Shown: positions 54,795-60,230 of the stretch, piece after piece | Position numbering within the stretch: the first letter of the stretch is position 1 | How the letters are laid out: every line of letters begins with the position of its first letter | Origin: Candidatus Woesebacteria bacterium GW2011_GWA1_39_21 | GTDB lineage: Bacteria; Patescibacteriota; Microgenomatia; UBA8517 | Length of the DNA stretch: 60,701 bases | Direction of reading: 5' to 3' | Assembly: GCA_000993685.1 (NCBI GenBank) | Contig: LBWP01000018.1 | Coordinates: 1-60,701 of the forward strand | Made by a program: the position numbers and the translations under genes | The notes under the pieces: model-generated | What the model was told of the DNA's origin: nothing | What the model saw: only the letters and a program-made list of their open reading frames with translations | The model's database searches: none

Positions 54795-54879
54795 GCTGAG
54801 GTGGCGGAGCGGCCAATCGCACCAGACTGTAAATCTGGCGCCCGGACGGGCTACCTAGGTTCGAATCCTAGCCTCAGCA
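54795..54879 (+). tRNA. tRNA-Tyr(GTA)
   Basis: GCTGAGG/CCTCAGC acceptor, CCAGA-CTGTAAA-TCTGG, long variable arm, CTAGG-TTCGAAT-CCTAG. Confidence 0.95.
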
Positions 54880-54944
54880 CTCCTTGCAGTCGTGTTGAGT
54901 CTAGTCTTGATAGTGCACAAGTAATGAATTGCATTCGTGCACGG

Positions 54945-54963
54945 CGAATCCTAGCCTCAGCAC
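54945..54963 (+). repeat. 19 bp direct repeat of the tRNA-Tyr 3' end (att-like)
   Basis: CGAATCCTAGCCTCAGCAC at 54862-54880 and again at 54945-54963. Confidence 0.85.
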
Positions 54964-54964
54964 A

Positions 54965-58924: not shown

Positions 58925-59224
58925 TTATTCTACGGAGTCGATTAAAGAGGTTTGTGGATCAGGGTTGTCGAATTGCCCCTCAAGTTTAGCTTTTATTTCT
59001 TCTCTTGATACTCCTAACCCATCATAGATTCCAAGATTTTCTGCAGTTTTTGTTGGATCAAATATTACTCTAACGTCTCCCGAAGTTTGTTTTTTGTGAA
59101 AACTGTCAATTGTTTTTGTAATCTCGAAAGCTCGTTTAATTCTACTTTGGATATCCGGCGTTATTGATCCCAAAAAAGGAGTCTGGTTTTTTATTTCTGT
59201 CATAAAAAATAAATTAAGACTCAC
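58925..59224 (-). CDS. Hypothetical protein
   Basis: 99 aa AT-rich ORF, overlapping the upstream ORF by 11 nt. Confidence 0.5.
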   Translation of the reverse strand: MSLNLFFMTEIKNQTPFLGSITPDIQSRIKRAFEITKTIDSFHKKQTSGDVRVIFDPTKTAENLGIYDGLGVSREEIKAKLEGQFDNPDPQTSLIDSVE

Positions 59225-59558
59225 CCTTACTTACCCTCTGACATGGTTGGAGTCCTCGTTTATCGTGATGAGATATTCCAAGATTCTCATCTACAACATG
59301 CTGATCTAATTTTTGTTGAAGATCCAATTGTGTTTGAGCAGCATTCTCAATACTTACGGTTCTATCACTTCCTCCATAATTGTCACTCAGATCTCCTTGA
59401 GTTAAATGCTTACCTTCACTGTGAAATCCACCAGCAATAAAATGAACTATATCTTCTATTCTATCCCTTGCTGCCTGTCCAGTAGTAACACCACCTTGCA
59501 AAGCGGTACTATTACTAAACAATCCTTTTAACTTGCCAACAATGTCTCTTTCAGCCAT
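59214..59558 (-). CDS. Hypothetical protein
   Basis: 114 aa ORF preceded by an AT-rich promoter-like region. Confidence 0.55.
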   Translation of the reverse strand: MAERDIVGKLKGLFSNSTALQGGVTTGQAARDRIEDIVHFIAGGFHSEGKHLTQGDLSDNYGGSDRTVSIENAAQTQLDLQQKLDQHVVDENLGISHHDKRGLQPCQRVSKGES

Positions 59559-59708
59559 AGGGCGGAATTATATCATATCTTACGTTTAAACAATATAAAA
59601 AAAACTTTAAAATATATATTTAATTTCAATCTCTATTTTTATCTTCCAACCGACTTCATATAAAATATTCGTTTTATCCGACTTTTGAGATATAATGTCT
59701 CTTATATT

Positions 59709-59742
59709 AGGGGTGTCGTTCAGTGGCAGGATAGCAGTCTCC
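59709..59742 (+). pseudogene. Isolated 5' half of a second tRNA-Trp
   Basis: AGGGGTG-TC-GTTC-AGTGGCA-GGAT-A-GCAGT-CTCC, stopping after anticodon position 35; the matching acceptor 3' strand CACCCCT-G is at 59963-59970. Confidence 0.7.
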
Positions 59743-59766
59743 CCTTCTGCCTTGCACTTTGAATAT

Positions 59767-59837
59767 ACGGGTGTGATGAAATGGTATCATGGCGGTCTCC
59801 AAAACCGCTCTTCCAGGTTCGAATCCTGGCACCCGTG
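59767..59837 (+). tRNA. tRNA-Trp(CCA)
   Basis: ACGGGTG/CACCCGT acceptor, ATGA/TCAT D-stem, GCGGT-CTCCAAA-ACCGC, CCAGG-TTCGAAT-CCTGG, discriminator G. Confidence 0.95.
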
Positions 59838-60002
59838 CAACTACTGCGGGCAGGCAAAACCCGTGACGAGAGTTCGATGACACCCTTCGCGGCTCGAAAA
59901 TTCGTAAGAATTGAGATAAAGTGAAGTAAGACATATGAAATTTACTAATTTCATATTCTCCCCACCCCTGCAAAATAATCTCGGAAGATATATACTGTCA
60001 TC

Positions 60003-60140
60003 ATGCAAAAGAAACAAATAATTGTGGTTTTTGCAATTGCACTTGTAATAGTTATTCTAATCTACTTTGTATCACTAATATTATCAGTTAATAACCAGTG
60101 TCACCCATTACTAAGAGCGTTTGGAGAAAAGTGTTTTTGA
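60003..60140 (+). CDS. Small membrane protein (45 aa, below the ORF-track cutoff)
   Basis: MQKKQIIVVFAIALVIVILIYFVSLILSVNNQCHPLLRAFGEKCF: basic N-terminus and one TM helix. Confidence 0.5.
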   Translation: MQKKQIIVVFAIALVIVILIYFVSLILSVNNQCHPLLRAFGEKCF

Positions 60141-60230
60141 AAACTTTCCTCTATTAAAAAGTTCCTGCATAGTTCACTGCCCCTGCTGAGAAAATTTAGC
60201 TTCATTTCTCTAATGATATAATGAAAAAAT

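Follow-up and report, generated by a model that had tools for sequence, protein, structure and literature searches.

The window, i.e., the whole stretch of 60,701 nucleotides of Candidatus Woesebacteria DNA analysed here, carries at 59709-59970 an intact tRNA-Trp gene nested among the separated pieces of a second tRNA-Trp. This nested arrangement is real and is not an assembly artefact. The outer gene is probably the resident ancestral tRNA-Trp, now a pseudogene broken twice, with the inner gene as its functional replacement lodged within it, and the nested gene as such represents a scar. Compared with its ancestral form, the outer gene has received two insertions, one from 59743 to about 59846/59855 and the other at 59879-59956, the latter corresponding to a structured element, hereafter designated as TLI, that has relatives at other tRNA and tmRNA genes. 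The features of the locus are as follows:

59691..59696, plus strand: -10-like TATAAT (inside GAGATATAAT), presumed promoter of the old tRNA-Trp gene
59709..59742, plus strand: outer tRNA-Trp, positions 1-35 (acceptor 5' strand, D arm, mutated anticodon-stem 5' strand, loop CTCC)
59743..59766, plus strand: spacer of 24 nt, leader of the inner tRNA (sequence reading)
59767..59838, plus strand: inner intact tRNA-Trp(CCA), including discriminator G (ARAGORN, Rfam)
59839..59846, plus strand: trailer of the inserted segment, 8 nt (sequence reading)
59847..59878, plus strand: outer tRNA-Trp, middle part (CGGGC AGGCAAA ACCCG TGAC GAGAG TTCGAT)
59879..59956, plus strand: TLI, ORF-less structured element of 78 nt, in the T loop between positions 59 and 60
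59957..59970, plus strand: outer tRNA-Trp, 3' end (T60, T-stem 3' strand CTCCC, acceptor 3' strand CACCCCT, discriminator G)

Integrity of the locus and origin of its two tRNA-Trp genes

The whole 671-bp intergenic region is spanned, with 99.7-100% identity, by five independent metagenome assemblies that came from different projects and different assemblers. Population variants of this region are just two, 59821 G/A and 59978 A/G, the former being the sole SNP in the inner tRNA, where it falls at T-loop position 57 and is neutral. The first-pass annotation had raised the concern of a collapsed or mis-assembled cluster, and some short contigs do end within the region (L006 near 59977, L010 near 59805). 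Yet with an identical arrangement in the five assemblies, and a like architecture with a different sequence in L013, the probability of a chimeric or collapsed tRNA cluster is close to nil.

The protein encoded just upstream (59214-59558, minus strand) is present on 22 contigs and has two homologues only. In L011, whose upstream protein is 82% identical to that of the window, the orthologous site is occupied by a single clean tRNA-Trp, while L013, a neighbour at 60% identity, has the nested architecture of the window. A clean outer-type tRNA-Trp was also found at the same place in L183, which came from an rpmG-anchored sample of relatives, so that the comparison of sister genomes proposed by the earlier annotation yields one intact outer-type gene in each of L011 and L183. 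The upstream flank of the window aligns with that of L011 through the promoter, and GATATAAT occurs at equal distance upstream of the clean tRNA-Trp of L011 and of the 5' fragment of L013. The TATAAT at 59691-59696 was not listed by a sigma-70 consensus scan because a good -35 is absent; this box presumably now drives the entire nested transcript.

The outer pieces, which had been singled out in the first-pass annotation, can be followed one by one in the alignment with L011. The 5' part (59709-59742) is a good tRNA-Trp 5' half, reading from position 1 to 35; its start is 23/24 identical to the tRNA-Trp of L011, the differences clustering at positions 24-28, and its anticodon-stem 5' strand is GCAGT vs CGGGT in the intact type. 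An anticodon-3'/variable/T-arm piece is present as claimed, its extent having been set too small: it actually covers 59847-59878 and comprises the complete old anticodon arm with an altered loop, the variable loop TGAC, the T-stem 5' strand GAGAG, and TTCGAT, which represents T-loop positions 54-59 (23/24 identical to L011 over 59855-59878). The 3' end (59957-59970) is 13/14 identical to L011, was found by a repeat scan to pair 7/7 with the outer 5' end, and keeps its original downstream context, the flank after 59970 aligning with the post-tRNA flank of L011 (GATATATACT and the start of a small membrane ORF). Once 59709-59742, 59856-59878 and 59957-59970 are joined, the product matches the L011 tRNA-Trp at 63/71 positions and the L183 one at 59/71. 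By these alignments, which lie far above chance, the outer pieces are shown to belong to one ancestral resident gene.

Signs of decay are found along the same gene. Numbered along the joined 71 nt, the eight differences with L011 are at 19, 24-28, 47, and 61, where 47 and 61 are positions 50 and 64 of the standard tRNA numbering. The combination of G50->A and T64->C leaves an A·C pair, while a single change of either kind would keep pairing. The outer anticodon-stem 5' strand no longer pairs with the retained 3' strand, and the three anticodon-stem mismatches and the one T-stem mismatch (A50·C64) that had been counted in the joined sequence are indeed there. In the second copy of the loop, TCTCC has become CAGGC, and the GCA once read as part of a mosaic with a decayed tRNA-Cys sits in this old Trp anticodon arm; the idea of a tRNA-Cys remnant was rejected. 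Equivalent outer pieces are more decayed in L013, L087, and L044.

Several complementarities accompany the first insertion. As noted earlier, ACTGC at 59843-59847 is the complement of GCAGT, the altered strand in the outer 5' part, and the sequences on either side of the inner tRNA pair with each other (CTGCC/GGCAG, TTGCAC/GTGCAA); in L087, these flanks form a 10-bp inverted repeat. In inverted orientation, the spacer at 59743-59766 imperfectly repeats the outer D-arm segment (CTGCC..CAC..TGAAT vs GTTCAGTGGCAGG), with which it pairs in the MFE fold. An inverted copy following the 5' fragment is clearer in L181 and weaker in L013. The GCAGT/ACTGC complementarity, and the pairing of sequences around the inner tRNA seen in the window as well as in L087, go beyond a pure decay model, which does not explain them.

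A complete and distinct tRNA-Trp had been reported behind the 24-nt spacer, and both ARAGORN, as tRNA-Trp(cca), and Rfam recover it at 59767-59838. Its score against the Rfam tRNA model (RF00005) is 61.7 bits (E 6.5e-13, threshold 29 bits), and it has the CCA anticodon, the A1-U72 pair, and the G73 of a tRNA-Trp. Inner and outer tRNA-Trp are just 45/71 identical. The inner gene is 65/71 identical to the tRNA-Trp of L185, all six differences being compensated and located in the acceptor stem, and it shares 94.6% identity over 56 nt with L044/L093; no match was detected in IMG/VR. In L044, the inner-type tRNA is paired with a TLI-bearing outer-type fragment (TCTTTCCACCCCTG). The inner tRNA is the normal tRNA-Trp type of the related genomes L185 and L044. 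It lies downstream of the old promoter, the 24-nt spacer offering it no separate one. Among the readings first offered, that of one tRNA-Trp replaced by another is supported by the outer type being intact in L011 and L183 and the inner type being used by L185 and L044.

The possible reading of the outer gene as an interrupted or split tRNA

Another reading of the locus would have the inserts removed, or the pieces joined in trans, so that the outer tRNA-Trp is still made. The 7/7 acceptor pairing, the pairing flanks of the inner tRNA, and the new anticodon stem that GCAGT and ACTGC could form all speak for it, as does the U found before the T-loop site, a base that also precedes the 5' splice site of group I introns. 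Such introns have been described in tRNA anticodon loops and from tmRNA T loops (bioRxiv 10.1101/2020.01.27.920355), and the inserts of the window lie likewise in an anticodon loop and a T loop. Yet covariance models for group I and group II introns gave no hit at E<=10 in 59500-60200, and Intron_gpI gave none at E<=1 in nine TLI-family loci. The inserts have no catalytic core and no terminal G, the last base of the T-loop element being a U, and with 78 and 113 nt they are far too small, below known self-splicing introns. The insert at the anticodon site is preceded by a C. The first-pass annotation had pointed to this C at the 35/36 site and to the lack of a clear group I core, and covariance search and sequence concur with it on both counts.

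The joined product does not make a convincing tRNA either. With introns of up to 300 nt allowed, ARAGORN called the inner tRNA only and not the outer gene, which Rfam failed to recognise as well; the joined construct was called only at the very lax setting -ps70, as 'tRNA-?(ccaa)' with three anticodon-stem mismatches. Taking ACTGC as the partner strand would place a C at position 37 and leave an extra arm of 20 nt. The locus already has an intact tRNA-Trp inside, L013, L087, and L044 show decay of the outer parts, and among about 21 TLI copies not one occupies a complete tRNA; removing the inserts does not restore the host tRNA, as the host copies are fragments. The doubly interrupted tRNA whose intron carries a tRNA, proposed in the first-pass annotation, was rejected on the missing core, the broken stems of the joined sequence, and the decayed relatives (L013, L087), and continued production of an outer tRNA-Trp by splicing or trans-joining is very improbable.

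To our knowledge, no splicing endonuclease is known in the Woesebacteria-like group. The locus resembles archaeal multi-intron, split, or permuted tRNAs in having non-canonical interruptions, including one in the T loop, and flanks that form helices. It differs from them in its bacterial host (L33 gene, TATAAT-type promoters, MreB/PBP genes) and its degenerate exons, and no bulge-helix-bulge was visible at the locus in the MFE or centroid fold.

The TLI element and its family

The 78-nt insert at 59879-59956, with the hairpin that had been described at first, found with 10 bp by the repeat scan, interrupts TTCGATT of L011 as TTCGAT, element, T, with no target duplication. The AT common to both junctions makes an insertion point at 57/58 or 58/59 possible too. 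The element scores 103.9 bits with covariance model R1 and consists of P1 (CUUCGC/GUGAAG) with a P2 hairpin with a GUAA loop inside it, a linker GUAAGAC, and a terminal hairpin (AUAUGAAAUU/AAUUUCAUAU). All copies follow TTCRAT (TTCGCT in one case) and end in ...CAUAU. The window insert opens with GACACCC, for which the GGGTGTC/GACACCC pairing reported earlier was found again by the repeat scan, and most other copies start with GACGCCC, GGCGCCC, AGCGCCC, or CACGCCC. The common fold comprises P1, GAC, a two-part inner hairpin with GA/GA flanks, ACAAA, P1', GUAAGAY, and the terminal hairpin, a CAC/GUG helix taking the place of GUAAGAY in one subgroup. P1 is supported by covariation (three pairs changed on both sides, 19 cells), its five core pairs show no unpaired cell, and pairing holds in 97% of cells vs 24-45% in slid controls. 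The invariance of the terminal hairpin is a product of the search pattern, which required this hairpin. The two end structures are unlike each other. A small ORF starting at the hairpin ATG (with GAGG before it) was rejected, loops of 3-8 nt breaking the frame in 6/18 copies, as was an internal guide by which the element would pair with the T loop (TCGAA/TTGAA vs TTCRA), no consistent covariation being seen. Likenesses to a hammerhead, a k-turn, or group II domain V/VI were weighed by eye and dropped.

The hairpin of the L013 copy shares its stem with that of the window and differs in the loop. Related copies were searched by a pattern scan of metagenome contigs, which brought the family to light, followed by a tighter scan of GTDB genomes. 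The first metagenome pattern was too AT-rich, most of its 118 hits being due to chance, and the GTDB scan added members in Candidatus Woesebacteria and 'Patescibacteria group' MAGs. Two complete genomes, OY970314.1 and DATDRP01, are among those with TLI. The taxonomic placement of the family and of the window follows the names borne by these MAGs and by the nearest L33 homologues. The family comprises about 20 independent Woesebacteria/Patescibacteria loci, where it occupies remnants of Pro, Arg, Trp, Ile, Leu, and Ala tRNAs and of tmRNA, and each copy is followed by T, the T-stem 3' strand, the acceptor 3' strand, and the discriminator of that tRNA or tmRNA. The fragment that harbours a copy is in every case directly preceded by an intact tRNA or tmRNA of its own kind, and 0 of about 21 copies was found inside an otherwise complete tRNA or tmRNA gene. 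With no Rfam match for the inserts at E<=10 (59500-60200) or at E<=1 in nine family loci, TLI is apparently an undescribed family of conserved elements.

The signs of mobility come from comparisons between loci. The Trp-associated TLI of L042 is 91-93% identical to the Leu-associated copies of L096/L120, that of L013 (Trp) is 86% identical to L057 (tmRNA), and the window copy (Trp) is 82% identical to L039 (Arg), while the copies of the window and L013, both at Trp, share 70% identity. Mobility is therefore indicated, since TLI subtypes cross tRNA identities; the element is missing from the close relatives L011 and L183. All-against-all ORF clustering revealed no protein family common to TLI neighbourhoods (integrase, transposase, TnpB), and no recombinase or transposase family appeared in the Pfam listings for L001-L013 and L181-L187. 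The window holds a single copy, by both blastn and model R1. No enzyme that could move TLI was found beside any locus, and mobility is put forward from comparative patterns, by which TLI appears to behave as a small non-autonomous mobile element.

Two layouts can be distinguished. In the window, L039, L087, L119/L064, L168, and L028, there is no repeat and the T-stem 5' strand abuts TTCRAT. A longer TLI unit is found in L042, L013, L052, L057, L096, L120, L044, L097, and the tRNA-Pro loci, with a terminator in the Trp, Leu, Ala, and tmRNA units, the tRNA-Pro units having a short left arm and no terminator. Where the fragment still matches the adjacent gene, the longer unit is flanked by a 15-bp repeat (T60 to C74). 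A tRNA-3' direct repeat is present in L042, L013, L096, L097, L079, and L176 as well as at the tRNA-Tyr of the window; at the window tRNA-Trp, positions 60-73 of the outer gene occur once, without direct repeat. The left arms of repeat-flanked units are shared between units, and an imperfect inverted terminus of 9-10 nt occurs in 4/8 terminator-type units.

These repeats suggest another origin, in which TLI never enters T loops itself and is instead an arm of a miniature unit that entered site-specifically at the tRNA 3' end, by tyrosine-integrase-like or casposase-like recombination, and duplicated positions 60-74; in the window, a deletion between the TTCGAT of the tRNA and that of the unit would have followed once the inner tRNA had freed the outer gene. 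Perfect or near-perfect 15-bp repeats (T60 to C74) at Trp, Leu, Ala, Pro, and tmRNA loci are in line with such a scar, as are the homology beginning directly past the discriminator in Trp, Leu, and tmRNA units and, in four loci, a left terminus (ATATAGAAAT) that is an imperfect inverted copy of the right one (ATTTCATAT). Other tRNAs in relatives have short units between repeats of 17-20 nt (T-loop class) or 37 nt (anticodon class), and 15 bp is also the length of the casposase duplication (PMC5137440). Against it, no integrase or Cas1 gene was seen beside about 25 loci, and about 20/21 units are miniature rather than in mixed states of decay. The compensatory changes of P1 would be needless for double-stranded arm sites, a T-loop crossover between tRNAs would produce dead hybrids, yet Trp and Leu units are 91-93% alike, and the same deletion would be needed many times, as the window and 6-7 other loci lack a repeat. 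No copy of TLI is found in IMG/VR or GenBank phages: members were absent from IMG/VR by the hairpin, core, and second-family end patterns, whose matches came down to a gut-phage hairpin without relation to TLI, a single GC-rich phage family, and a stretch of coding sequence in L267. On balance, we consider an integration scar at the tRNA 3' end unlikely.

Fragments made by integrases at tRNA genes, with attL/attR repeats and with sublocations in the T loop and the anticodon loop, share with these loci an intact tRNA beside a 3'-end duplicate that starts in the T loop or anticodon arm, as well as 5' fragments upstream of the complete copy, and reflect recent, lineage-specific events. In Caldiarchaeum, 5' tRNA fragments upstream of a reconstituted gene figure in a model for how tRNA genes are disrupted (PMC3293823). 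Here, by contrast, no integrase was found and merely 24-190 nt separate the repeats, the T-loop insert of the window is without any repeat and has as its arm a covarying hairpin structure, and the complete copy lies inside the old gene and not kilobases away. Palindromic mini-elements of the IS200/IS605 type (PATEs) offer another comparison. Like these PATEs and MITEs, TLI is short, ORF-less, hairpin-rich, strand-specific, and variable in internal length, and in the window it lies 3' of a fixed motif, TTCRAT, with no target duplication. It differs in its dissimilar end hairpins, the right one abutting the junction, in targeting T loops only and not every TTCRAT, and in the low copy number seen (one in 60.7 kb), with no TnpA or TnpB seen. 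Casposons, finally, generate a 15-bp duplication beside the tRNA T-psi-C region and reuse their site, giving rise to arrays, and casposon mini-elements can integrate in vitro (PMC5137440, PMC4779613). In TLI relatives, however, the duplicated segment lies wholly within the tRNA (positions 60-74), while the duplication of the A. boonei casposon overlaps the tRNA by 5 bp only and bacterial casposons are intergenic (PMC5137440, PMC4779613); most TLI copies are without clear terminal inverted repeats, and no Cas1 or PolB was seen near the loci. None of the nearest described systems fits every feature.

The conserved fold raises the further question of a selected RNA. A tRNA-like minihelix with an expanded T loop could be formed jointly by TLI, both strands of the T stem, and the acceptor 3' strand, joined at some loci by an acceptor-5'-like strand, and could act downstream of tRNAs as a processing, stability, or decoy element, for which the outer pieces of the window would have been kept. 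This would agree with the covarying fold and its conserved unpaired GAC, AA, GUAAGAY, and tandem GA, with the retention of the element at orthologous tRNA-Pro loci despite differing intact tRNAs, and with the fold of the window (z = -3.1). A left-arm 7-mer also matches the T-stem 3' strand of the fragment (GGAGGGA/TCCCTCC, GGGAAGA/TCTTTCC, GAGGGGA/TCCCCTC), but descent from a real tRNA already predicts T-stem complementarity. At many loci, an intrinsic terminator separates the tRNA from the module, with no evident promoter, and there are fragments that have diverged from the neighbouring tRNA (L120, L070) or that are cut short (L052). L011 and L183 do without the element, and the sense fold is barely more stable than the antisense (12/20 copies, mean -1.3 kcal/mol). 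A selected minihelix seems, accordingly, a distinctly improbable account.

Probable history of the locus and similar scars at other tRNA genes

Under the preferred reading, a broken resident gene and its replacement, we infer the order of the hits, the movement of TLI, the insertion of the inner gene, and the expression and processing of the transcript. TLI would have hit the T loop of the resident gene as a simple insertion without target duplication. The other hit, whose breakpoint follows anticodon base 35, would have placed in the old anticodon arm a stretch of roughly 105-113 nt consisting of a short leader, a complete tRNA-Trp of the related-genome type, and an 8-nt trailer. With transcription starting from the old promoter, the inner tRNA would be released by the action of RNase P at one end and RNase Z (or exonucleases) at the other, and the outer pieces would be by-products that are never rejoined. 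Because a hit on a single-copy essential tRNA would be expected to be lethal, a pre-existing second copy or a simultaneous rescue would be needed. Replacement may have come first and left TLI a dispensable T loop to enter, an order that would account for TLI being seen solely in fragments; or TLI and the tRNA-bearing segment may have arrived together. More tentatively, TLI and small cassettes bearing a complete tRNA, which enter the anticodon or D region of the cognate gene, might bring about serial in-place replacement of single-copy tRNA genes, with the conserved fold as the substrate of an insertion mechanism acting on DNA or RNA, a possibility that we regard as doubtful.

In these genomes of about 1 Mb, most tRNA genes are essential and present in one copy, yet their turnover seems rapid: old copies are broken and new ones, sometimes those of other lineages, are put behind the same promoter, as it appears. 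If mobile, the T-loop element would be a new kind of tRNA-targeting parasite, whose fold hints at a novel insertion mechanism. The TLI family lends itself to a new RNA/DNA motif model, and the tRNA fragments are useful markers of lineage history in Patescibacteria. Both tRNA finders and island finders will misread such nested loci.

The layout with a 5' fragment, a short spacer, and an intact tRNA was also found in L013, L087, L028, L181, and L185. A census took in 54 Patescibacteria tRNA genes, at loci mostly chosen for carrying TLI; a 3' duplicate was present within 450 nt of 12 of these genes, and a close 5' fragment at 4. The 5'-fragment layout and short repeat-flanked 3' units are shown to recur at Trp, Ile, Pro, Tyr, and Thr genes, and these loci expose what may be a frequent in-place replacement of tRNA genes in Woesebacteria-like genomes. 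In L181, the closest relative by L33, the tRNA-Thr(TGT) comes with a perfect 20-nt 5' fragment and, after it, the inverted copy of this fragment, as well as a similar 3' unit, while a 5' fragment is present at the tRNA-Tyr and a 37-nt duplicate of the 3' half at the tRNA-Thr(GGT).

The window itself offers a second case. Downstream of its tRNA-Tyr (54795-54880) come a hairpin-bearing insert of 67 nt and a second copy, 17-19 nt long, of the 3' end of this tRNA. Model R1 rejected this downstream unit, which is missing in L011, as a TLI member, and we treat it as a second, related family whose right end is GCACGGCG, joined to AATCC. The same unit occurs in L185 after an identical tRNA-Tyr, together with an older tRNA-Tyr 5' fragment behind the promoter, and the L185 genome additionally bears a tmRNA-linked TLI.

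Acceptor stem of the inner tRNA-Trp and the downstream reading frame

The intact inner tRNA-Trp of the nested locus was compared with its counterpart in L185, a related genome.
Window 59767-59838: inner tRNA-Trp
L185 7031-7102: tRNA-Trp
Positions 8-65 are identical in the two genes, whereas six acceptor-stem positions differ, every one of them compensated (ACGGGTG/CACCCGT in the window versus AGGCTTG/CAAGCCT in L185). In its acceptor stem, the inner gene of the window is similar to the dead outer gene: 6 of the 7 pairs are shared. Directly 3' of tRNA-Trp is a small hydrophobic ORF, whose position is kept in the window and in L011, the sister locus with a single clean tRNA-Trp; it belongs to no Pfam family.
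Window 60003-60140: small hydrophobic ORF
L011 ca. 9744-9520, minus strand: small hydrophobic ORF

Duplicated segments at tRNA-Tyr and tRNA-Thr genes

Duplicated tRNA segments also occur at other tRNA genes.
Window 54881-54964: unit 3' of tRNA-Tyr (54795-54880), a 67-nt insert followed by a duplicate of the tRNA 3' end
L181 700-960, minus strand: tRNA-Thr(TGT) with a 5' fragment and a 3' unit
L181 3200-3390, minus strand: tRNA-Thr(GGT) with a duplicated 3' half
In the window, the tRNA-Tyr duplicate (CGAATCCTAGCCTCAGCAC) is perfect over 17-19 nt, and the insert includes an acceptor-5'-like segment (GTGTTGAG), a T-stem-like stretch (TCTAG), the sequence TCTTGAT, and a hairpin (GTGCAC..GTGCAC). 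The tRNA-Tyr of L185 is identical to that of the window and is followed by a homologous unit; the orthologous gene of L011 has no such insert-plus-duplicate unit.

In L181, the closest related genome by L33, a 20-nt perfect copy of the 5' end of tRNA-Thr(TGT) lies upstream of that gene and is followed by an inverted copy of itself (GCCGGCATAGCTCAGTGGTA..TAGCCACTGAGC..TATGCCGG). On the 3' side are a short hairpin unit, ending in GCACGGCG|AATCC, and a 17-20-nt repeat. This hairpin unit represents a second family of T-loop elements, which has the left junction TTCGAT|AGCGC in common with TLI, the ORF-less T-loop element family. At tRNA-Thr(GGT), a 37-nt duplicate of the 3' half, 66 nt downstream, spans the 3' strand of the anticodon stem to the discriminator and includes an intact T arm; next to nothing separates the two copies. 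This duplicate is an att-like repeat of the anticodon-loop class.

Coding potential and distribution of TLI copies

In its 3' part, TLI has what looks like a ribosome-binding site and, after it, a start codon (GAAGTAAGACATATG, window 59923-59975; GAGGTAAGACATATG in other copies), but this part is probably non-coding, because hairpin loops of varying length break the reading frame across copies.

Two TLI copies in L064 (2182-3502), 100% identical and spaced by 1.1 kb, each carry the same tRNA-Pro fragment, with a Nudix-like ORF between them; this arrangement reflects a segmental duplication or, alternatively, a unit that carries cargo. Four GTDB records (L168, L169, L170 and L175) are titled 'uncultured Gammaproteobacteria' and have TLI loci. 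Their TLI region (ca. 160 nt displayed) is identical or near-identical to Woesebacteria/Patescibacteria MAG loci, L175 matching L174 (UBA8517) and L170 matching L097. These four bins are probably mislabelled.
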